A stretch of DNA of 64,000 nucleotides from a virus (IMGVR_UViG_3300037067_026376:1-64000); one strand, 5' to 3'; numbered from the stretch's first letter, positions 22,869 through 55,700 are shown. Notes: generated by a model not told the origin, from the sequence alone. Made by a program: numbers and translations.

Positions 22869-22942
22869 TAGCGGAAGCGGGAATCGAACCCGCAAAGTGC
22901 AAGGGTTATGAACCCTCCGACTTACCATTGGTCTATTCCGCG
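22869..22942 (-). tRNA. tRNA-Met(CAU), initiator-like
   Basis: Cloverleaf; anticodon loop UU-CAU-AA; three G-C pairs at the base of the anticodon loop; unpaired C1:U72; T arm GCGGG-UUCGAUU-CCCGC; no encoded CCA. Confidence 0.9.
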
Positions 22943-37698: not shown

Positions 37699-38385
37699 TT
37701 ATTCAGATGTCAACAAATATTTTGACCACTGCGAACTCATGGCCTCCGCGATTCCAGAGAAAGTGAGTGATCTTATCTTTGATCTGTTTTTTGATGTGGG
37801 CAAAAAATCTAAATGATTTTTAGACCTTTTTGAAAGAACAGGATTATAATGAGTAAGGCTGTATTTTTTATTTTTCGCTATTAAATATTCCGGAGTTACA
37901 ATTTTTGTGGATATCAACAGTGGTAATCCTTTGATCCATAAACATGTGGATTTTGTTTCAGGATGTCCGAACATCCATGGTTGGATGATTTGATCCGGTT
38001 TTCTTAAAACTGTACTCATGCATCCTGTTGGATTTTCAATACATTTATGTGGAATGTCGCAATAATACAATTTTTTAAAAAAATCAATAGCTTCGAGTCT
38101 GGCTTTCCTTCGCTCCTGTCCTACTAAAACGCCTGATTTACGCGCAGGTTGGTCTTTTAACCATTTATTAGCTGTATTAGTGAGATAAGTACAAGGCGGA
38201 TGAAAAATACCTAAATCCCAGCCATCATCAAGATGTTTTAAAACATCATCCTGTATATGCCATTCCGGATGACCTCCCTCCGCCGGGATAATGTCGCAGG
38301 AATAAGCCTCGTGTCCTTTATCCCGAAAAGCCTTTGTTACTATTTGACTGAATTCACATCCTATTAAGACTTTAAGTTTTTTCAT
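37699..38385 (-). CDS. C5-cytosine methyltransferase-like protein
   Basis: VLIGCEFS, HPPCTYL (PC motif), IENP, QPWMFGH, KSTCLW. Confidence 0.75.
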   Translation of the reverse strand: MKKLKVLIGCEFSQIVTKAFRDKGHEAYSCDIIPAEGGHPEWHIQDDVLKHLDDGWDLGIFHPPCTYLTNTANKWLKDQPARKSGVLVGQERRKARLEAIDFFKKLYYCDIPHKCIENPTGCMSTVLRKPDQIIQPWMFGHPETKSTCLWIKGLPLLISTKIVTPEYLIAKNKKYSLTHYNPVLSKRSKNHLDFLPTSKNRSKIRSLTFSGIAEAMSSQWSKYLLTSE

Positions 38386-38659
38386 TTTTTTAGTAAAGGT
38401 CCCCGCCCGGGTAATTATAAAGGGTTGTAAAGTGTAGTTATTTTGTGAGGTCCCGGGCGGGATCACCAATATGTATTGGTACTTTATATATCGGATAAAA
38501 TCTATAAAAAGTCAATATTTTTTTTACTTAATATGAAGCCACCCGGCAGCTTCCTGTTCTGCCGGGTGGTTACTGCAATTCATTGTTTTTTTGAACTTAA
38601 ATTATCTCTATATCCTTTTTAAAATTAAATTTAATAACGCCTCTACTGAGTGCGTGACT

Positions 38660-46960: not shown

Positions 46961-47009
46961 AGTTTTAGCCCTTTATATATTATATATCGGAATATTTATT
47001 GTTTTTATC

Positions 47010-47036
47010 AAAAGAAAACCCCGCTCTCACGGGGTT
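47010..47036 (-). terminator. Intrinsic terminator closing the cassette array
   Basis: AACCCCG-UGAGAG-CGGGGUU followed by UUCUUUU on the minus strand. Confidence 0.7.
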
Positions 47037-47041
47037 ATTAT

Positions 47042-47233
47042 TCATTGTTTTTGCAGATATAAATCAAAGCGTAATTTATTACTGCCCCAGTTTAATGAAA
47101 CAAGCCTTAAAGCATCTGACCATTTCGTAGCAAGGGCATTTTTACTGGAGTAAGGAACAATCCCAATTTCAACGATCCAATTCTCGTCTATTCTTACATC
47201 GTTAAGTGTTTCTTTCAATTCTTTTACTGTCAT
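47042..47233 (-). CDS. Array gene, hypothetical
   Basis: Preceded by element 1. Confidence 0.6.
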   Translation of the reverse strand: MTVKELKETLNDVRIDENWIVEIGIVPYSSKNALATKWSDALRLVSLNWGSNKLRFDLYLQKQ

Positions 47234-47313
47234 AATAATTATCCCTTTATAATTATAGATTTGTAAACCCTCAAGGGTTTATGTAAGTCCCCCGCAGGAG
47301 ACAAACATAAAAC
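47234..47313 (-). repeat. Double-hairpin intergenic element 1
   Basis: TAAACCCT/AGGGTTTA; TTATGT-aa-GTCCCC..GGAGAC-aa-ACATAA; CCCTTTATAATT. Confidence 0.85.
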
Positions 47314-47505
47314 TTAGAAGTTCATCATAATTGATTTATCTATTTCTTCTTTTGAATATTCCACTTCCGATTCCCAATAATTTTTGATTTTACATTTGTT
47401 ATTCTGGTCAAAAATTACTTTTCTAAGTTTAGGACCATCGTTTATCAAATAATTAGATTTTGCAATAGCATAATAAATATTATTTTCTTTAAAAAAAGTT
47501 ATCAT
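47314..47505 (-). CDS. Array gene, hypothetical
   Basis: GGAGG RBS, coupled to the sigma-like gene. Confidence 0.55.
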   Translation of the reverse strand: MITFFKENNIYYAIAKSNYLINDGPKLRKVIFDQNNKCKIKNYWESEVEYSKEEIDKSIMMNF

Positions 47506-47517
47506 ATAAATCCTCCG

Positions 47518-48162
47518 TTATGCTGCTTTTAGATTTTCTCGGATCTCCCGAAGTGCTGATGTGATTCTGTATTCGTCCCAGCCTTTGCCATGAAAGTAAT
47601 CATAGATTGCGTGCTGTTTCGCTTTCGCCCGGCTCATATTTGAGCGTTCCCGGAAATTACGTTCCATGATGAAATTATAGTTATAAATAATTTCATCATG
47701 CATCTGCCGTGCGTCCCTGCTCATGCTCTGAAGCGTGATGTCGATAAGAAGATCGCTTTCTTCCTCTTTCCATCCCTTTACCTCTCTCCCGCAGAACATA
47801 GCCCCCTGGGGCAGATTAAGGGAATCGCTTCCGTTATCTTCTGAGTTGATAGAATCAGTATATTGATGATACCGTTCCAATTCCTGATTTTCCTGCATTC
47901 TACCGTAGAACTCCCCGTTCTTTTTCTTGCCGCCGTTTATACTTCCCCGGCGTGCGTAATTATACATTTTCCAGAACAGAGATTTTGAGTAGAAGGTATG
48001 AAACTTAGCTGCAGAGGGATTGAATTTTTCTGCGCACAGCATAAATGTATCGTGTGCTACTTCTAAAAGCTCATCCCTGTCTATCCCAGTAGTTTGATGA
48101 ATATTTTTTACCGTGATATTAATAGCTTTTTCTACTTCTTTCGTATAGAGTTCTTCATACAT
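47518..48162 (-). CDS. Sigma-70 region-2-like transcription factor
   Basis: DRDELLEVAHDTFMLCAEKFNPSAAKFHTFYSKSLFWKMYNYAR resembles sigma region 2; C-terminal helical domain. Confidence 0.55.
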   Translation of the reverse strand: MYEELYTKEVEKAINITVKNIHQTTGIDRDELLEVAHDTFMLCAEKFNPSAAKFHTFYSKSLFWKMYNYARRGSINGGKKKNGEFYGRMQENQELERYHQYTDSINSEDNGSDSLNLPQGAMFCGREVKGWKEEESDLLIDITLQSMSRDARQMHDEIIYNYNFIMERNFRERSNMSRAKAKQHAIYDYFHGKGWDEYRITSALREIRENLKAA

Positions 48163-48245
48163 AGTATTGACTCTCCCTTTTATAATTTTGTTAAGCGTTT
48201 AAAAAACCTTACTCAATCCCTGCGTACAGGGAAAGAGTAAAACTT
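48163..48245 (-). repeat. Double-hairpin element 2
   Basis: TTACTC-aa-TCCCTG..CAGGGA-aa-GAGTAA. Confidence 0.85.
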
Positions 48246-48620
48246 TTAATTTTTTACGATTTCTCTTATTGCGTTTTCTACCGCATCCCAATTCATACCG
48301 TATTCATTATCTGTATGTCTTGAGATATGATCCAGAACCTCGCCAGCCTGAATATTGTTTATTTCGACATCCATTTCTTCCGCTTTTTCGTAGACGTCCG
48401 CAGTCTCCCATGTATCTACAATCGCAATCGTAGTTCCATATTTATCGTTTGTTTCAATCAGTTCAGCTTTTACGACATGGAAATCAGCATTCACTATTTC
48501 TTTTAATTCTTTAACTCTTGTCTCGGCGTCACCTTCATGAAGAAAGAATTCGCCGTGATCATCATGCGATAATTTGTTTCCGTTTCTGCTTTCGCCTGAT
48601 TTGATAAGATATACCTGCAT
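48246..48620 (-). CDS. Array gene, hypothetical
   Basis: C-terminal VLDHISRHTDNEYGMNWD motif. Confidence 0.6.
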   Translation of the reverse strand: MQVYLIKSGESRNGNKLSHDDHGEFFLHEGDAETRVKELKEIVNADFHVVKAELIETNDKYGTTIAIVDTWETADVYEKAEEMDVEINNIQAGEVLDHISRHTDNEYGMNWDAVENAIREIVKN

Positions 48621-48700
48621 AGTATTAACCCCTTTATAATTATATTTAAAGTTTTTAAAAACTTTACTCTATAGGTATATATACCTATAGAGTAAAATGT
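48621..48700 (-). repeat. Double-hairpin element 3
   Basis: Two perfect palindromes TAAAGTTTTTAAAAACTTTA and TTTACTCTATAGGTATATATACCTATAGAGTAAA. Confidence 0.9.
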
Positions 48701-48898
48701 TTAATTTCTTCCTGCGATTGCTATTCCCTGCGGATTATAAATTAATGCGACATCTTTTAAAGGTATTCCGCCTTTATCGAAAACATTACCTTTATCATCC
48801 ATGACGGATTTGCAGAAATCATTATAATAATATTTGAAATCCTTCGCCGTTCCTTTCCTTTCTAATCCGTCCTCTACGATCCAGTATTTTGCTTTCAT
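48701..48898 (-). CDS. Array gene, hypothetical (65 aa)
   Basis: ATG 48898 follows the element RBS. Confidence 0.6.
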   Translation of the reverse strand: MKAKYWIVEDGLERKGTAKDFKYYYNDFCKSVMDDKGNVFDKGGIPLKDVALIYNPQGIAIAGRN

Positions 48899-48978
48899 AA
48901 TATTAACCCCTTTATAATTATATTTAAACCTTAAAGGTTTACTCAATGACCCGTTTATACAGGTCAAAGAGTAACGCT
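48899..48978 (-). repeat. Double-hairpin element 4
   Basis: TAAACCT/AGGTTTA; TTACTC-aa-TGACC..GGTCA-aa-GAGTAA. Confidence 0.85.
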
Positions 48979-49416
48979 TTAATATTCCCCGGCTTCGTCT
49001 TCAATTTCTTCTGCGTATTCCCTGAATTTATTTTTGTCCTTGTAAACTATTTCATAGGATAATTCAGGACCGTCTTCAGTGTCTCTTGCATCATAATCAG
49101 CAATGATACAATTAATTGATTTCTCGCTGTCTGTTGCGACATAAGAGACAAACCCGGATTGTATCCCTATGACAATATTAATTTCGGGTTCGCTGTCGCT
49201 GGCTGGTTTTTCTTCTATTTTTCCGGCAGGATATAGAAATATTTCCGCAGTGCCGACGCTGTTTCCGTTAAAATCATTGAATCTGTCAAATAACGATTTT
49301 ATATCGTCATTCACTGCAATTTTTTTGCTGTACTCTGACAAGATTCTAGAGACTTCCTGACCTGGTTCGTCGCTAAATGCGTCGTTATCCAGATTGATTT
49401 TAATAACTAGTTCCAT
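48979..49416 (-). CDS. Array gene, hypothetical acidic protein
   Basis: INLDNDAF...DFNGNSVG domain plus a second acidic domain. Confidence 0.6.
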   Translation of the reverse strand: MELVIKINLDNDAFSDEPGQEVSRILSEYSKKIAVNDDIKSLFDRFNDFNGNSVGTAEIFLYPAGKIEEKPASDSEPEINIVIGIQSGFVSYVATDSEKSINCIIADYDARDTEDGPELSYEIVYKDKNKFREYAEEIEDEAGEY

Positions 49417-49497
49417 TACATTAACCCTTTATAATTTTATTTAAGTCTTAATAGACTTATACAAAGGGAAAATAATTTTTCCCTAAGCATAAATACA
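49417..49497 (-). repeat. Double-hairpin element 5
   Basis: TAAGTC/GACTTA; AGGGAAAA/TTTTCCCT. Confidence 0.85.
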
Positions 49498-49731
49498 TTA
49501 AAAATACGATAGATTTTTGATTGCTTTCTTGTCTTGTTCCCTATTCCCGATATGAATATTTTTAATTGCAGCCTGTAAAATTATTCTAGGAAGAATAAAA
49601 TCGTCGCTGTAATCCTCTTTATTGATCCCGCCACTGATTAATAAGCGTTCGCCCTCAGACTTCAAAAATGACTTGAAATCACAATTATTGATCAGCTCTT
49701 CATATTTTACTTTAAATTGTTCCTTTGTCAT
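49498..49731 (-). CDS. Array gene, hypothetical (77 aa)
   Basis: ATG 49731 follows the element RBS. Confidence 0.6.
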   Translation of the reverse strand: MTKEQFKVKYEELINNCDFKSFLKSEGERLLISGGINKEDYSDDFILPRIILQAAIKNIHIGNREQDKKAIKNLSYF

Positions 49732-49817
49732 ATAATTAAACCCCTTTATAATTATTGTTAAGATTTTAAAAAATCTTATGCAATGACCTGAATATATCAG
49801 GTCAAAACACAAAACTT
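49732..49817 (-). repeat. Double-hairpin element 6
   Basis: TAAGATTTT/AAAATCTTA; TGACCTG/CAGGTCA. Confidence 0.85.
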
Positions 49818-50129
49818 TTATTTTACATTCGCTATCATGTCACGCTTTAAACCGTCGCTGACATTCCATATAATGGGATAATTATTTTCCCTTTCATACA
49901 TTCTGTAATTATCTTTATTATATTTTTTCGGTAATAGATTATTCTCAAACATAATCGCCAATGCTGTTTGCTTGTAATGTTCGCCGTATCCGTAAACTAC
50001 AGGATCAGAAACAAATATTTTTCCGTCTTTTATGCGTTCGATATTTACAGAATGATAAGTATTACCATTTACTTTGTCGAACCAGCGCACAGCGGAAACA
50101 TTAAATAATATTACTCTTTGCTTTTTCAT
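49818..50129 (-). CDS. Array gene, conserved hypothetical phage protein
   Basis: RWFDKVNGNTYHS...YGYGEHY motif. Confidence 0.65.
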   Translation of the reverse strand: MKKQRVILFNVSAVRWFDKVNGNTYHSVNIERIKDGKIFVSDPVVYGYGEHYKQTALAIMFENNLLPKKYNKDNYRMYERENNYPIIWNVSDGLKRDMIANVK

Positions 50130-50218
50130 ATAATAAACCCCTTTATAATTTATTTAAGTCTTTTTAATAGACTTATAAAACAGGGATAATAAAATATTAT
50201 CCCTGAAATATAAATTGA
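50130..50218 (-). repeat. Double-hairpin element 7
   Basis: 85 bp identical to element 10. Confidence 0.9.
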
Positions 50219-51085
50219 TTAATTTTCGCTAATATATTTTTCGGCGAATACCCCAGTTGTTTTGAAATTGATTGCCGGGATAGAAATTGATTTTTCGTTA
50301 TGGTCAATGACTACAGAATTTGACGCTATCAGGTTTAAAAATTCCTGATATTTATTTTTTGTTTCCTGTAATTCTGAAACATATTTTTTTATATCGTCAA
50401 TTAAGGCGATATAAAATTTGTCGTAATCAAAAAATTTAGTTACGGAAAAATTACCGTCAAACACTGCGTAATATAAGTATTCGCTGTCAATATCCAGAAT
50501 ATCAGTTAAGATGAATTGAAGAATTGATCCCGATTGGTGATTTAACATTAACGCAGTGTCAATATTCCAATCTGAAGAATCCGGAAAATTATCAAAACTT
50601 GACCAAAAACCGTCGTAACTTGTGTAATGATCCCTTAAATATTGCGTCCATTCTTCCATATTATCAGAAATCAATTTTTTAATATTATCAATATTTTCCT
50701 TTGTGAATACAATTTCAATATTTACGGAATCGTTGTAAAAATTGTATTCTCTAGGCGAAACAATTTTCTGATAATTCAATTTCTTTATCAGATTATTTTT
50801 CACTAATATTGATTCAATTTCTGAAGCGCATTTTTTGCAAACCGCTGTTTCATATTCCCGATTTTTAAAATGATCATAAGATTTATTGTTTATGAATGAT
50901 TCAATCTTTTTTGATAATTCTTCGCTGTTATTATTCACTAATAATAAATCAATTTCACTGTTTCCAGTTTTTTTATTTTCGATCGATTCTTTTAAATCCT
51001 GTATGATATAATCATTATCAGGTTCAAAAAGAGTATTGTAAAAACCTGGGAATACCGGTAACCATGATTCAACTTTTTTATTCAT
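50219..51085 (-). CDS. Array gene, conserved hypothetical phage protein
   Basis: LPVFPGFYNT, SPREYNF and SYDGFWS motifs. Confidence 0.65.
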   Translation of the reverse strand: MNKKVESWLPVFPGFYNTLFEPDNDYIIQDLKESIENKKTGNSEIDLLLVNNNSEELSKKIESFINNKSYDHFKNREYETAVCKKCASEIESILVKNNLIKKLNYQKIVSPREYNFYNDSVNIEIVFTKENIDNIKKLISDNMEEWTQYLRDHYTSYDGFWSSFDNFPDSSDWNIDTALMLNHQSGSILQFILTDILDIDSEYLYYAVFDGNFSVTKFFDYDKFYIALIDDIKKYVSELQETKNKYQEFLNLIASNSVVIDHNEKSISIPAINFKTTGVFAEKYISEN

Positions 51086-51165
51086 AATATTAACCCTTTA
51101 TAATTAAATTTAAGGTTTTAAAAACCTTATCACTAGAGATATATTAATCTCTAATGATAAAAATT
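51086..51165 (-). repeat. Double-hairpin element 8
   Basis: TAAGGTTTT/AAAACCTTA; TTATCA..AGAGAT/ATCTCT..TGATAA. Confidence 0.85.
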
Positions 51166-51309
51166 TTAAAGTGGACGTAAACAGCTTGTCTTGAAAAACC
51201 AGTTTACGCCGTACCAGTCTTTATTTTTGCCGGTTAATTTTACAATATAAATTGTCCTTAATTCTTTTATTACAATTCCTGTCCCAATTCCTTTAACATA
51301 TACTTTCAT
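51166..51309 (-). CDS. Array gene, 47-aa SH3-like small protein
   Basis: Hand-translated MKVYVKGIGTGIVIKELRTIYIVKLTG...; exactly fills the space between elements 8 and 9. Confidence 0.6.
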   Translation of the reverse strand: MKVYVKGIGTGIVIKELRTIYIVKLTGKNKDWYGVNWFFKTSCLRPL

Positions 51310-51390
51310 ATATTAACCCCTTTATAATTTTATTTAAGTCTTAATAGACTTATGCAAAGGGAAAATTATTTTTCCCTAAGTATAAACATA
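51310..51390 (-). repeat. Double-hairpin element 9
   Basis: Near-identical to element 5 (3 substitutions in the core). Confidence 0.9.
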
Positions 51391-51567
51391 TTAAAAATTA
51401 TGATTTATCATCGGTTTATTATAATGTATATAATTATATATTTGTTGTTGTTCCTGCGGTGTAAAATCAGAAATTTTTATATATTTCTTTTTATTTTCCG
51501 ATTCATAAATAAAATTAGTTTTATCGTCATAAAACCAGCGATAATTATTAATTATAATTTTTTCCAT
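51391..51567 (-). CDS. Array gene, 58-aa hypothetical
   Basis: Hand-translated MEKIIINNYRWFYDDKTNFIYES...; fills the space between elements 9 and 10. Confidence 0.6.
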   Translation of the reverse strand: MEKIIINNYRWFYDDKTNFIYESENKKKYIKISDFTPQEQQQIYNYIHYNKPMINHNF

Positions 51568-51655
51568 AGTATTAACCCTTTATAATTTATTTAAGTCTTT
51601 TTAATAGACTTATAAAACAGGGATAATAAAATATTATCCCTGAAATATAAATTGA
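51568..51655 (-). repeat. Double-hairpin element 10
   Basis: Identical core to element 7. Confidence 0.9.
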
Positions 51656-52075
51656 TTAATAACCGTAAAGAATATCGGAAACATTCTTATTATATTTATC
51701 ATCACTATTTTTTAAAGCATAGAATAAATTTACTGTTCCGCCGCGCGGATCATGTTGAAATTCAGGAATGATTGAAATAAATTCGCTGATATTTATTTTC
51801 CCTGCGTACTCTTTTATTTTTCCTTCAATCAATTCTATTTCCCGATCAAATACAGTAAAATCATCTTTAATATATGCGTTTTTATCAGTTATGGAAAAAT
51901 GACCTTTGCGGGGAATATACCCCTTACCATTACATGAATTTTCGCATTGCCGCTGATGCTGTTTATAAAGTTTTCTCAATTTCATAAAAAGCATTACTTG
52001 ATCATAATTTAATACAAGTCCTGCACGCTCAGCGAATACCCCGACGATAAAATAATACAGTTTTGTATTTTTCAT
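51656..52075 (-). CDS. Array gene, conserved hypothetical
   Basis: QCENSCNG and HDPRGGTV motifs. Confidence 0.6.
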   Translation of the reverse strand: MKNTKLYYFIVGVFAERAGLVLNYDQVMLFMKLRKLYKQHQRQCENSCNGKGYIPRKGHFSITDKNAYIKDDFTVFDREIELIEGKIKEYAGKINISEFISIIPEFQHDPRGGTVNLFYALKNSDDKYNKNVSDILYGY

Positions 52076-52162
52076 ATAATTTTAACCCTTTATAATTTAT
52101 TTAAGATTTTTAAAAATCTTATAAAGACAGGGAATATATAATTCCCTGCTGATATAAAAATT
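52076..52162 (-). repeat. Double-hairpin element 11
   Basis: TAAGATTTTT/AAAAATCTTA; CAGGGAAT/ATTCCCTG. Confidence 0.85.
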
Positions 52163-52402
52163 TTAATAACTTTCGATCCATTCACTTAATGACATTTTAA
52201 AATTCATTCGATTAAATACTTTTTCAATGTCATTGATATTTTTTGTATTAATTAAATCGGATATTATATCAGATTTATAATTTTTAATTGTTTCTAATAT
52301 TGCATCGTATACATACCCATTTTTTACTAAAATTTCAATTGCTTTTTCCGTATTTGCGTCAAATTCTTTTATTAAAGATTCTTTTATCATTTTATAATTC
52401 AT
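52163..52402 (-). CDS. Array gene, hypothetical
   Basis: Between elements 11 and 12. Confidence 0.55.
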   Translation of the reverse strand: MNYKMIKESLIKEFDANTEKAIEILVKNGYVYDAILETIKNYKSDIISDLINTKNINDIEKVFNRMNFKMSLSEWIESY

Positions 52403-52489
52403 ATAATTTTACCCCTTTATAATTAGTATTAAGAATTTAAAAAATTCTTATCCATGAGTAATAATATTATTACTCATGGGAAAAACTTT
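52403..52489 (-). repeat. Double-hairpin element 12
   Basis: TAAGAATTT/AAATTCTTA; CCATGAGTAATAAT/ATTATTACTCATGG. Confidence 0.85.
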
Positions 52490-53314
52490 TTACTTTAATT
52501 TGAAATTAAAGCAATCCGTTTGAAATCCGCCGTAAACAGAATCATAATTATAACTGCGCTGAGCGTCGGCTTTTATTCCTATGCGATCATATTTTGCGTT
52601 GCCGTAACAAACAGGAATTGTCATTTTTTTAAACGTCTTATTCTCAAATTGACTGCCTGATCCCAGGAATTCGCCGAAAAAACCGAATTGAGTATTTTTG
52701 GGAATTTCTATTGATTTACAAGTTTTGATTTTTTCCTTTAATTCAAGAAAATCATTTAAAGAAATAGTAAACGGTAATTCCAGTAAACAAGCTCCGTATA
52801 CATTCGCATGTTCAGAAAGATAATCATCTTTTTTTATTCCCTTCCTTACTACTTTGAAAATCTCCGACAAATAACCTTTTTCCGACATAGTATCCATTGA
52901 ATTAGTACAGTCATAATTTGAATAAAATATCAGACTTGCCAATATTTCAGTATTAAGTAATTGATCATAATTCAAATTTACAACCGGATAAATCTCCAGT
53001 TCATTGATAAATTCTTTTATCAGTTTATCGTCAATTTCAGATTCTGAATGATCTGAAAGTAATATTTCAGCAATTTTTGATTTAAAATGATCAAATATTA
53101 TTTCTTCCTTAAAAAAATCTTCCTGCTGAAAGATATAATCTAGATTATTTTCATAAAGTTCATTGCAAAAATTATCGCTTCCCTCTTCTAGAATAGAAAT
53201 AATTTGATTTTTTGACAAATTGTCGCTGCGGTCAAAATCAATCTTGACCGGGTTTTTGTCGCAGTATTCCTGAATTTTAACTTGTAAATCAGCAATCATT
53301 TTTTCTTTTAACAT
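52490..53314 (-). CDS. Array gene, hypothetical acidic protein
   Basis: GFFGEFLGSGS and YDSVYG motifs. Confidence 0.6.
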   Translation of the reverse strand: MLKEKMIADLQVKIQEYCDKNPVKIDFDRSDNLSKNQIISILEEGSDNFCNELYENNLDYIFQQEDFFKEEIIFDHFKSKIAEILLSDHSESEIDDKLIKEFINELEIYPVVNLNYDQLLNTEILASLIFYSNYDCTNSMDTMSEKGYLSEIFKVVRKGIKKDDYLSEHANVYGACLLELPFTISLNDFLELKEKIKTCKSIEIPKNTQFGFFGEFLGSGSQFENKTFKKMTIPVCYGNAKYDRIGIKADAQRSYNYDSVYGGFQTDCFNFKLK

Positions 53315-53400
53315 AGTATTAACCCTTTATAATTAATATTTACGATTATTAAAAACCGTATAAAATGGCAGGAAAATTAATCCCTGTCAAAGTATCTGAT
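53315..53400 (-). repeat. Double-hairpin element 13 (degenerate)
   Basis: TACG/CGTA variant of hairpin 1; TGGCAGG/CCTGTCA. Confidence 0.7.
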
Positions 53401-53414
53401 TTTTAAATTAAAAG

Positions 53415-53680
53415 TTGCCGGATTGCTCCGGCTTACCAGATTTTATTGAAATTCTTTTTTAAAATTTGTTTTGCATAAATAAATTTTGGCAAAATTGAAT
53501 CATCATTATCCCAGACAACATTAGTAAGTCTTGATTCGTACCTATCTAAAAATTTTAAAAGTCTTTCTTCAGTCATATTTTTTATAGTTGTTTTATAATT
53601 TGTTTTCATAATTTGTTTTCCCGGACAATCTAACCCGGCATTTTGAGCCGGGTATTTTTTTATTTGCCGGATTGCTCCGG
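53415..53680. repeat. 17-bp direct repeat TTGCCGGATTGCTCCGG (GCAA-tetraloop hairpin on minus) at 53415-53431 and 53664-53680
   Basis: Exact match; flanks a 47-aa ORF. Confidence 0.8.
53433..53576 (-). CDS. 47-aa hypothetical protein lacking the array element
   Basis: Hand-translated MTEERLLKFLDRYESRL... Confidence 0.5.
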   Translation of the reverse strand: MTEERLLKFLDRYESRLTNVVWDNDDSILPKFIYAKQILKKNFNKIW

Positions 53681-53714
53681 TTTGGTGTGCTAATATACCA
53701 TGTGGTATTTTTTA

Positions 53715-53873
53715 AATTACTATTAAATATTTATAATCGTATAAAACGGCCATACATAGTTTGTAGCTGTTGTATTCCGGATATAATTCTTTCACTTTTT
53801 CTTTTGCTATTGCCATGCAATCATTCGTTAATATTTCTTTCACTTTGTTGTATTGAGATTTTGTTATTTTCAT
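53715..53873 (-). CDS. Array gene, 52-aa hypothetical
   Basis: Hand-translated MKITKSQYNKVKEIL...; preceded by element 14. Confidence 0.55.
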
Positions 53874-53956
53874 AATATTAACCCCTTTATAATTAAATTT
53901 AAGTTTATAAAAAACTTATTACAGGACACTTTTAAAATGTCCTGTTTATAAATCTT
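53874..53956 (-). repeat. Double-hairpin element 14
   Basis: TAAGTTT/AAACTTA; ACAGGACA/TGTCCTGT. Confidence 0.85.
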
Positions 53957-54118
53957 TTATTTACAGTAATTAAACCAGAATATTTTGTAGTCACTCCATA
54001 AAAATATATTATCTCTATCTTTATATTTTATCTCTTCAGCGATGTGATATATTTTTATATTATATTCTGATTCTATTCCGTTTTTTTGTTTGCATATTTC
54101 TTTTTTAAAATCAATCAT
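53957..54118 (-). CDS. Array gene, 53-aa hypothetical
   Basis: Hand-translated; fills the space between elements 14 and 15. Confidence 0.55.
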   Translation of the reverse strand: MIDFKKEICKQKNGIESEYNIKIYHIAEEIKYKDRDNIFLWSDYKIFWFNYCK

Positions 54119-54201
54119 ATAATCACCCTTTATAATTATAGTATAAGATTTAAAAAATCTTATGTAATGACTGTATTTAATACAGTCAAAACATAAAACT
54201 T
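54119..54201 (-). repeat. Double-hairpin element 15
   Basis: TTATGT-aa-TGACTGTATT/AATACAGTCA-aa-ACATAA. Confidence 0.88.
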
Positions 54202-54345
54202 TTAAGCGACTCTTTTTTGTCTCAATGCTAAGCGGCGAGAAAATATTTTTCCTGTTTTGTCTTTTTCAAAAATTGTTTTTACATACTGGACATTACCTTT
54301 CAGGTCATAACATTTAACAAATTTTGTTTCATTTACAATTTTCAT
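54202..54345 (-). CDS. Array gene, 47-aa basic protein
   Basis: Hand-translated MKIVNETKFVKCYDLKG... Confidence 0.5.
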   Translation of the reverse strand: MKIVNETKFVKCYDLKGNVQYVKTIFEKDKTGKIFSRRLALRQKRVA

Positions 54346-54346
54346 A

Positions 54347-54454
54347 TTATTTTACCTGTTTTTTTATTTTTGATTTTAAAGCATAGTAAGAAATTACTGC
54401 CGCTAACAATAACACCGCTTGTGATAATATTTCTAAAGTCTTTTTATCTAACAT
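54347..54454 (-). CDS. Array gene, 35-aa single-TM peptide
   Basis: MLDKKTLEILSQAVLLLAAVISYYALKSKIKKQVK; preceded by element 16. Confidence 0.55.
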   Translation of the reverse strand: MLDKKTLEILSQAVLLLAAVISYYALKSKIKKQVK

Positions 54455-54536
54455 AATATTAACCCTTTATTAATTAGATTTAAGATAAAAATTAATATCT
54501 TACTAGATAAGACAATTTGCATTGTCTTAAATAGTA
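54455..54536 (-). repeat. Double-hairpin element 16
   Basis: TAAGATA/TATCTTA; TTACTA..TAAGACAAT/ATTGTCTTA..TAGTAA. Confidence 0.85.
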
Positions 54537-54789
54537 ACATATTAAAAACTGCAAATATATTATTTATTCCAGATTCGACGATTTATAAAAAGATATAAAC
54601 CGGACAGGATAATATATTTGTCTTTGTGTTAAGTTTAGGGTTAATTATATAGGGTTATTAGATTTAATTATTTTGCTTTTGCCGTATTGATCGGGATATA
54701 CCCGGATTATACAGTGTTGCAAAGCCTTAATCTTAAAATTAAGTTTTAAATCGTCGAATTTCAAATAACCAGTTGTACTTTACATATAT

Positions 54790-54819
54790 AATATAGTAAT
54801 AATATCGGTTAAAAGTCAA
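54790..54819 (-). promoter_or_regulatory. Sigma70-like promoter heading the array
   Basis: TTGACT-N18-TATATT on the minus strand. Confidence 0.5.
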
Positions 54820-54829
54820 GAAAAAAAAG

Positions 54830-55700
54830 AAAAAAAAGTGAAAAAAGTTTACGTATGTAAACAAAAACAGGCAAAAATTGAACTTTTTTTAATAAAAAAT
54901 AGATAAATTCAGGGAAAAATAAAATAATGTCCGATATAAAATAAATATATCTATAAGAGCAATAGACATATAGACATATAGATAATAATAAACAGGATAT
55001 AACAATCAAATAATATAGAGATATAGAGTATCTGTATATAATGTATTATTTATATATTCAAATAATACGATATAATAGAGCTAAACAGGATATTATATAT
55101 TACATTAAATTGATTGATTATACAATACAGGATATATACAATACAGGATATATAAACAACAATATCCGATATAAAAGAAATATAAACAATAAGAGATAAA
55201 CAATAAAGTAATGATAATAAACAGGATATAATATATTTCTTCGAATTGATCGATTATACAATACCCGATATATAGTAAGAGTAAAGGGTAAGAAAATAAA
55301 GAAAAATATACAGGATACAGGGCAAAAGCAGGGAAAGAAATATATGGCGGCATACTATCTATTTATCTATATATTCAAATAATACGATATATATAACCTG
55401 ATTATATAAGCTTTTTATAAGACTGATAGTGCTATGAGACATAACATATATTAGAGGAAGTAATACTATATGGACATTTTCATATAAATGTCCATAAAAC
55501 ATAAAACCATGTCCTATAGCCTATTACACGTTGTTCAACCTCGTATAATTTTATGGAAATTTTTTCTGGCCTCCATTTCCTATAATATCCTCTCCCTTCT
55601 ATTACGAGACATTACTCCCGTATAATTTTATAGGAATTTTTTCCTACCCCCTTATTTCTATTAAGTATTTCTTTATTATATTCCGATATATATGTTATGG
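54830..55700. other. AT-rich repeat-rich non-coding divergence region
   Basis: ACAGGATAT x5; 24-bp direct repeat at 55051-55074 and 55368-55391; no credible ORF. Confidence 0.65.

Follow-up and report, generated by a model that had tools for sequence, protein, structure and literature searches.

Sixteen intergenic elements with two alternative RNA folds separate the small genes of an early-type array in an uncultured phage

We analysed an array of small genes, and the structured intergenic elements that separate them, on a 64,000-nt window, which is the initial part of a virus record of 81.7 kb in IMG/VR (IMGVR_UViG_3300037067_026376; estimated completeness, 59%). The record encodes a DnaE-type polymerase, a DnaB helicase, a SNF2-type helicase, a terminase and a portal protein, and its genes lie on the minus strand at 8-55 kb and on the plus strand from ~55.6 kb. 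No near relative was found among GenBank phages, and a megablast search with the region gave no match; groundwater and landfill metagenomes hold near-identical DNA. The bin labels of the metagenome-assembled genomes in which relatives occur (Dehalococcoidia, PVC group) conflict and were not used to name a host. At 47231-54545, about 19 small minus-strand genes are separated by 16 elements (E01 to E16), which extend from a stop codon to the ATG that follows it. With the exception of a probable sigma factor, the array genes had no informative Pfam, PHROG or Atlas match, the two largest proteins included. These results support the view that the array is an early-type operon consisting mostly of orphan open reading frames (ORFans), in agreement with an earlier description made from the DNA alone (the sequence-only reading), which had called it an early-gene array.

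A sigma70-like early promoter candidate is predicted upstream of the array (54790-54819, minus strand; TTGACT-18-TATATT, 10 of 12 matches in a consensus scan), and a GC-rich intrinsic terminator is predicted at its end (47017-47036, minus strand; an 8-bp stem with 5 GC pairs, followed by a U run). Both had been named in the sequence-only reading as bracketing the array, and both were found by the scans. With one promoter-like site on the 5′ side, one terminator on the 3′ side and no internal promoter signal, we infer that the array is transcribed as one unit.

The elements are exclusive to the array. The motif TTATAAAGGG has 14 minus-strand copies at 47243-54135, compared with 0.5 expected, and none elsewhere on the minus strand of the 81.7-kb record; variant motifs replace it in two further copies, E02 and E16. 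The gaps between a stop codon and the next ATG are each 80-89 nt long, apart from E13, which reaches 118 nt through an extra 5′ hairpin; E16 stands ahead of the first gene, with no open reading frame (ORF) upstream. We constructed a covariance model (R1) from a seed of 11 window copies and 13 copies from relatives. The model scored all 16 window copies at E values of 3e-10 to 1.3e-4, including 5 that were outside the seed, and its search of the rest of the 81.7-kb record returned nothing below an E value of 0.01. The motif count, the model matches and the fold z-scores thus confirm the 16 stop-to-ATG elements that had been described from the sequence, and the covariance model, which had been named there as a check, finds only these 16 copies in the record.

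Fold z-scores relative to shuffles ranged from -2.8 to -8.05 across the elements, all of which are on the minus strand. In the order of transcription, E16 (54455-54545; R1 E value = 3.4e-5, z = -6.99) is followed by E15 (54119-54201; 1.5e-8, z = -6.19), E14 (53874-53956; 3.1e-7, z = -7.00) and E13 (53315-53432; 3.2e-6, outside the seed, z = -2.80), which has the weakest long hairpin and an extra GC-rich hairpin (CCGGAGCAAUCCGG) in front. Next come E12 (52403-52489; 4.4e-7, z = -8.05), E11 (52076-52162; 5.2e-8, z = -5.72) and E10 (51568-51655; 1.6e-6, outside the seed, repeat family D2), the last of which has 100% identity with E07 across 85 nt. E09 (51310-51390; 1.1e-8, outside the seed, z = -3.86) precedes E08 (51086-51165; 4.2e-8, z = -6.86), whose long hairpin is fully paired, and E07 itself lies at 50130-50218 (4.5e-6, outside the seed, z = -5.00). 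The series continues with E06 (49732-49817; 3.2e-10, z = -7.66), E05 (49417-49497; 1.2e-7, z = -5.18), E04 (48899-48978; 2.4e-9, z = -6.27) and E03 (48621-48700; 7.7e-9, z = -6.88; also fully paired), and it ends with E02 (48163-48245; 2.4e-8), which carries the variant ribosome-binding site (RBS) AAAAGGGAGAG, and the last element, E01 (47234-47313; 1.3e-4, outside the seed, z = -3.78). A second type of cassette boundary was also observed: direct copies of the GC-rich hairpin CCGGAGCAAUCCGG, at 53415-53434 and 53664-53683, flank a 58-aa gene (53433-53609) in place of a standard element, and the same arrangement occurs in one of the relatives described below (L274).

In most copies, the minimum-energy fold is a single long hairpin that begins at nt 1-2, that is, at the stop codon of the upstream gene, with median arms of 23 nt, 21 bp and apical loops of 3-6 nt. 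The upper stem (6-11 bp) is wholly different from copy to copy. Most copies have an internal loop (2x2, or 3x3 or 1x2) at a distance of 6-11 bp from the apical loop, whereas E03 and E08 are fully paired; below the internal loop, the middle stem reads UUAYNN/NNRUAA, and in the lower stem the stop codon plus AAAGUUUU pairs with UAAGNUUUUU. A second hairpin (hairpin 2), UAAGNNN-loop-NNNCUUA, takes as its 5′ arm the UAAGN segment of the lower stem, and because this segment is used by both, the two structures are mutually exclusive. An A/U-only spacer follows on the 3′ side of hairpin 2, then AAUUAUAAAGGG(G), 7-9 nt, and the AUG; the AAAGGG(G) Shine-Dalgarno sequence (SD) stands 7-9 nt before the AUG in 16/16 elements. 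The conserved ends of the element are UAAAAGUUUUA and UAAG..CUUA. Most of this architecture had been seen in the sequence-only reading, including the standard RBS that every element carries, but two points needed correction. The long hairpin extends further than had been drawn, with the stop codon and A-rich tail paired to the 5′ arm and loop of hairpin 2, so that hairpin 2 is an alternative to the long hairpin and does not merely overlap it. In addition, only about half of the copies have the 2x2 UU/UU internal loop. The SDs of most middle and late genes are of the GGAG type, which makes the AAAGGGG box specific to the array.

The stop-to-ATG layout recalls the promoter-early stem-loop (PeSL) cassettes of T4-type phages, and each element could in principle have its own promoter, of the host type or read by an unknown factor, perhaps by way of hairpin 2 and a TATAAA that is invariant (TATAAT in 4 copies) 8-15 nt before the SD. 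PeSLs share exactly this layout (PMC2839356). The best -35/-10 score in the elements, however, was the same as in shuffles (8.31 versus 8.18) and fell at inconsistent positions, under a consensus that may not be that of the host, and the region showed no enrichment of promoter-like sites in the scan (75 versus 61 ± 8). A start 7 nt past TATAAA would moreover leave the SD at the extreme 5′ end of the message, the spacing between hairpin 2 and the SD ranges from 7 to 21 nt in one relative (L277), and no T7-like RNA polymerase was found in the 81.7-kb record, where one 11.8-bit RNA_pol fragment lay well below the cut-off. We consider promoter-bearing elements quite improbable.

We then asked how far the two helices vary in a coordinated manner across copies. 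When all 16 copies were aligned with MAFFT, the alignment proved inconsistent with the structure and RNAalifold gave no pairs; we worked instead with a selected subset and with an alignment built on the model. For the long hairpin, the MAFFT alignment of 24 copies had 84.9% paired cells, compared with 65.3 ± 1.5% in shuffles, 90 double-sided changes versus 34, and a covariation score of 0.512 versus 0.181; none of 500 shuffles scored as high (0/500), and slid controls were 39-55% paired. In 45 model-aligned copies, an alignment fitted to the structure, the paired fraction was 90.7% versus 62.1% and the score was 0.713 versus 0.179. Hairpin 2 gave equivalent results (84.2% versus 71.5% paired cells, 29 versus 8.8 double-sided changes, and a score of 0.383 versus 0.140). 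Both helices covary relative to shuffles, which bears out the view that structure rather than sequence is selected. Furthermore, an alignment-free arm-swap test compared cognate with non-cognate arms, with an X-against-X″ control that was null. Cognate arms paired more stably than swapped arms both in the lower stem (-3.42 versus -1.74 kcal/mol) and in hairpin 2 (-5.85 versus -1.24 kcal/mol; permutation P value <= 2e-4 for each). These results indicate that both competing helices are copy-specific.

In energy models, the long form is predicted to be more stable by 5.2 kcal/mol on average, and blocking of the first 13 nt is predicted to make 44/47 copies refold into the upper hairpin plus hairpin 2. 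One use of such a switch would be a translational relay, in which a terminating ribosome melts the lower stem, hairpin 2 forms and the next RBS is freed, so that successive cassettes are coupled; the position of the stop codon as the first base pair of the stem and the covariation of two mutually exclusive helices are consistent with it. Against this, the modelled accessibility of the SD was 0.51 unmasked and 0.54 with the first 16 nt masked (50 copies, partition function), the SD is strongly sequestered in neither state, and E16 shows the same structure without an upstream ORF. We judge a relay to be very unlikely. With masking having no effect in the partition-function modelling, ribosome-driven unmasking of the SD was rejected as the main mechanism.

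The structure is specific to one strand. The fold in mRNA sense was more stable than that of its complement in 37/47 copies, including 13/16 in the window (Wilcoxon test, P value = 1e-6), with energies of -20.8 and -17.5 kcal/mol, respectively. The sense fold contained 81 G-U pairs and the antisense fold contained 20, where composition would give about equal numbers. This asymmetry in favour of the mRNA sense indicates that selection acted on the transcript and not on folded DNA. It also settles the strand as minus, which had been left mixed when elements 9 and 12 were taken to favour plus.

Relatives of the locus were obtained by lookups with the helicase and the sigma-like protein (n = 4), and their helicases are 99% (L274), 68% (L029), 54% (L277) and 53% (L276) identical to that of the window. 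When IMG/VR, JGI metagenomes and GTDB genomes were scanned for exact motifs, almost only single chance matches were returned, the L029 contig excepted, and a related-locus search with the helicase returned distant loci only. The stop-hairpin-UAAG..CUUA-RBS architecture is conserved in all four relatives. The RBS sequence may differ under the same hairpins (for example, AAAUUAAGAGGUGA in L277), and some copies in L276 and L277 retain the long hairpin alone. The sigma-like gene is the only gene common to all five arrays, and most other genes are unique to one array. Gene order is thus not identical among relatives, a comparison that the sequence-only reading had named as a test: all four differ.

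In L274, the closest relative, the flanks are 97% identical to those of the window, yet the array differs by insertions and deletions of cassettes. The L274 array has an additional 84-aa gene; the window has an additional 79-aa gene with one element, and its 103-aa and 77-aa genes are not in L274. Two further genes of L274, of 105 and 72 aa, precede the sigma gene, and the genes that follow it differ. For the window's 145-aa gene (48979-49416, minus strand), L274 has only a 61-aa N-terminal homologue, at L274:6119-6542, where the 61-aa version is followed by a 238-nt non-coding remnant, and at L029:1996-2673 separate 64-aa and 132-aa homologues are found with an element in between. Cassette genes are truncated and duplicated, besides being swapped.

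These differences end mostly at the elements. Among the ends of alignment blocks between the window and L274, 9/14 fell inside elements ±15 nt, compared with 24.7% expected (P value = 0.002). E02 is chimeric relative to L274 7893-7978: the two match exactly from the hairpin-2 loop onward, and what precedes the loop, long hairpin included, is unrelated; at other junctions, the entire element changes together with the downstream gene, or the RBS tail alone is replaced. Crossovers thus fall at several different conserved stretches, a pattern that would be expected of homologous recombination but not of an enzyme acting at specific sites. The identity of E07 and E10, at a position where L274 carries a different element from E07, points to recent conversion. 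L274-type junctions are also present in contigs from three other samples.

The structural conservation and the gain and loss of cassettes could also suggest attC-like or repetitive extragenic palindrome (REP)-like sites, that is, folded single-stranded DNA captured by a site-specific or HUH recombinase. As in integrons, the cassette boundary is set by structure more than by sequence. An attC site, however, is folded DNA that acts with the IntI integrase and core sites, and neither was found here when sought: the 81.7-kb record (~59% complete) had no match to tyrosine (PF00589, Phage_integrase), serine (Resolvase) or HUH (Y1_Tnp, PF01797) recombinases, and the aligned elements contained no attC core sites (RYYYAAC / GTTRRRY). 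Of these, the HUH (Y1) transposase would be expected of systems of REPs and their REP-associated tyrosine transposases (RAYTs). Crossovers are scattered over several positions of the element, and the G-U pairs favour RNA. DNA-level capture is in our view extremely unlikely, and the integron-like capture of the sequence-only reading is not supported; its proposal of a recombination joint holds insofar as gene content differs and the differences end at elements. RecT and ERF were not found in the 81.7-kb record.

We propose that the elements act in a polycistronic early mRNA as RNase III-type processing and stability junctions, each with a portable region for translation initiation, and that their conserved stretches double as homologous-recombination joints; in our estimate, this explanation has about an even chance of being correct. 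A single early transcription unit would run from the host-type promoter through a structured leader and ~19 small genes to the strong terminator. The ground state of each element would be the ~21-bp hairpin, roughly two helical turns, that starts from the upstream gene's stop codon. An endoribonuclease specific for double strands, in all likelihood the RNase III of the host, would cut it as in the early mRNA of T7. Loss or occupation of the lower stem's 5′ strand would then allow the UAAG... segment to refold with ...CUUA into hairpin 2. The processed message would then have a 3′ hairpin behind its stop codon and, at its other end, a 5′ hairpin a few bases before an unstructured A/U-rich leader, the SD AAAGGGG and the AUG, and the outcome would be a portable, context-insulated and presumably stabilised expression unit; E16 would likewise release the structured leader. 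Over evolution, general recombination at short homologies (the stop codon plus A tract, AUAAG, CUUAAAU and the RBS box) may add, delete and replace cassettes, as has been demonstrated for the PeSLs of T4-type phages.

We propose cutting at each long hairpin because the two-turn length, the internal loop, the intercistronic position and the selection at the RNA level all match RNase III signals. In RNase III substrates, 22 bp is an ideal length, and internal loops lead to single-strand cuts that leave stabilising 3′ hairpins (PMC3867540). The processing site of the sequence-only reading is supported to this extent, by analogy of hairpin size and internal-loop geometry.

Several observations weigh against this explanation. 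No RNase III gene was found in the 81.7-kb record (59% complete), so the host enzyme must be assumed, and none of the RNA runs searched for the locus contains it. The covariation counts are inflated by ancestry common to the window and L274 copies, the 45-copy alignment was itself fitted to the model, and since the lower stem is A-U rich, being mostly an invariant A tract and U tract, its pairing could be partly compositional. For E09, E11 and E13, the long form has no energetic advantage. Finally, a run of U5-6 lies 2-4 nt past the middle stem in 11/16 copies, and 5/16 copies passed a simple terminator scan, which together make attenuation a live alternative or an additional role.

The long hairpins would in that case be leaky intrinsic terminators or attenuators, PeSL-like but without promoters; each hairpin with its U run would take out part of the transcripts, which would produce a 5′-to-3′ gradient of expression and delay the distal sigma factor. 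A ribosome halting at the stop codon, which lies within the stem, could suppress termination. Terminators commonly have an upstream A tract paired with the U tract, and the stem-loops of PeSLs have been demonstrated to terminate (PMC2839356). The stem bases here are A-U rich, however, unlike the phage's own GC-rich terminator at the end of the array; E01, E04, E05, E07, E09 and E10 have no U run; and 16 serial terminators would leave the conserved distal sigma gene little expressed. Attenuation would explain neither the conserved two-turn length nor hairpin 2. It is the main rival, and we regard it as unlikely as the sole explanation, while processing and attenuation could coexist.

Among published systems, PeSL cassettes, known from T4-type phages (Arbiol et al. 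2010, PMC2839356; Comeau et al. 2014, PMC4122927), come closest, and the array is a promoter-less variant of the PeSL idea, not a new kind of system. Both have a repeated composite element of ~80-100 bp that fills the stop-to-ATG gap and contains a stem-loop, with an SD at its 3′ end; in both, the separated genes are small, mostly ORFan, early and located in a plastic region, and close relatives differ by insertion, deletion or replacement of genes at the elements, with homologous recombination the likely cause. The array elements differ in having no detectable sigma70-type promoter, the defining half of a PeSL (-35, N17, -10 and AT-rich upstream sequence), with the reservation that the host consensus may differ. 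They have two exclusive covarying helices in A-U-rich stems of ~21 bp, where PeSLs have one GC-rich terminator stem, and two-state RNA is not described for PeSLs; circular excision products (mini-circles) are a feature of PeSLs. The array phage, moreover, belongs to an unrelated, uncultured lineage with a DnaE-type polymerase. The sequence-only reading had named T7, SPO1 and attC as analogues; T7 and SPO1 remain useful comparisons, and PeSLs, which were not named there, are closer.

The early RNase III sites of T7 (R0.3, R0.5, R1, R1.1 and R1.3) are, by analogy of structure and position, the closest functional analogue. They too are intercistronic hairpins of about two turns, often with a central internal loop, selected as RNA, and the products expected here would likewise be messages with a protective 3′ hairpin. 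In the array, cleavage is predicted from structure, and its 16 sites are many more than those of T7. The array stem starts exactly at the stop codon and has an alternative 5′ hairpin and a fixed RBS built in, and the array sites mark swappable cassettes, which are not described for T7.

The early (host-takeover) gene cluster of SPO1 provides a third comparison (PMC6873191). It and SP82 resemble the array in having dense small early genes with strong individual RBSs. In SPO1, individual promoters and terminators are numerous, unlike in the array. Hue and colleagues reportedly found in 1995 that Bacillus RNase III cuts SP82 early RNA and that an SD rich in purines, close to the 5′ end so created, has a stabilising effect on the RNA downstream of it (cited in PMC3997798). 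To our knowledge, no repeated two-state module has been described in the SPO1/SP82 region.

The PeSL principle is that accessory early genes are expressed as well as shuffled by one standard intergenic module, and the array extends it to a phage lineage that is unrelated and uncultured. Here the module appears to be promoter-less and to work solely as a junction in the RNA that can fold in two ways. If the processing explanation is true, the element would be a natural insulated connector (3′ stabiliser, 5′ stabiliser and fixed RBS) for polycistronic expression, useful in the design of synthetic operons. It would also be a practical marker for those early gene sets of uncultured phages that evolve rapidly (for host takeover or counter-defence): a covariance model of the junction would recover the arrays even if they had no conserved gene. 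The frequent cassette differences among near-identical landfill and groundwater phages would form a natural series for the study of gene-set turnover.

The gene in third position from the 3′ end of the array (47518-48162, minus strand) encodes a protein of 214 aa that weakly matched phrog_351 (E value = 2.8e-4). A Sigma70_r2 match was obtained in 2/5 homologues (best E value = 4e-6), and in a structure search with the AlphaFold model of the sigma-like protein the top Foldseek rows were nearly all sigma factors, all at E values of at least 0.02. The product is probably a two-domain sigma factor. The gene after it (47314-47505) has no element in front; a canonical GGAGG SD is located 12 nt past the sigma stop, at 47506-47517.

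The probable target of this sigma factor lies outside the array. A box with the sequence TTCCGATATATA stands before the helicase gene (46981-46992, minus strand) and is the first copy of a probable middle/late promoter motif, which a motif count found 10 times at <=1 mismatch, compared with 1.4 expected, each time on the local coding strand. The sites are 15583, 46981, 55681, 56357 and 56929 plus five with 1 mismatch, 10-25 nt before genes, and no such box occurs in the array. TTCCGATATATA is probably a middle/late promoter read by the phage sigma factor, and a distal sigma gene fits an early operon that switches on this class of genes.

Between the early promoter and E16 lies a structured leader RNA (54546-54785, minus strand; z = -3.18). 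Its fold has a closing stem of 12-13 bp and an unpaired stretch with two AACCCU boxes antisense to the core of the cassette RBS; the first box (54643-54657) is antisense at 14/15 positions, and the second is at ~54628-54642. The boxes are retained in L274 and occur in altered form in the leader of the distant L276. A second 14/15 antisense copy was observed at 38413-38427 (a plus-strand match, antisense on the local mRNA), in the leader of the middle gene at 37699-38385, where it adjoins a GC-rich hairpin. In the window as a whole, about one match at <=2 mismatches would be expected.

The RBS box could accordingly be the operator of a class-wide post-transcriptional regulator, either a RegA-/RegB-like protein or a leader RNA with antisense boxes, with the hairpins presenting or protecting the box. 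T4 RegB and RegA act at early-gene initiation regions (PMC3014915), AAUUAUAAAGGG is unlike the GGAG-type SDs of the other genes of the genome, and the antisense stretch of the leader is unpaired, with its boxes kept in L274 and L276. Copy-and-paste descent alone may, however, account for the conservation of the box; L277 and L276 pair other RBS sequences with the same hairpins; and no regulator gene was identified in our annotation of the record. We find an operator improbable, and it is compatible with, not exclusive of, the processing explanation. In a more specific and equally speculative form, to which we give little credence, the elements would be true two-state RNA switches under class-wide control: the leader would be freed by cleavage at E16 and its two anti-RBS boxes would pair in trans with every cassette RBS, which would shut off or time the whole early class, and the choice between long hairpin and hairpin 2 would set the access to each cassette. 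The copy at 38413-38427 would then be a second antisense copy, in a middle transcript. If true, the phage would encode an RNA that acts as master regulator of an array of shuffling genes.

Two further features of the window were recorded. Rfam searches of the array, leader and elements gave no family or ribozyme, the array having only sub-threshold matches resembling microRNA precursors, and a single tRNA gene (22869-22942, minus strand) was the only match at the gathering level in the window. In the divergent region between the early genes and the plus-strand genes, tandem 16-bp repeats (TATACAATACAGGATATA and variants) are found at 55103-55168 and 55197-55274, together with a 57-nt repeat, and these may be iterons or operator sites.

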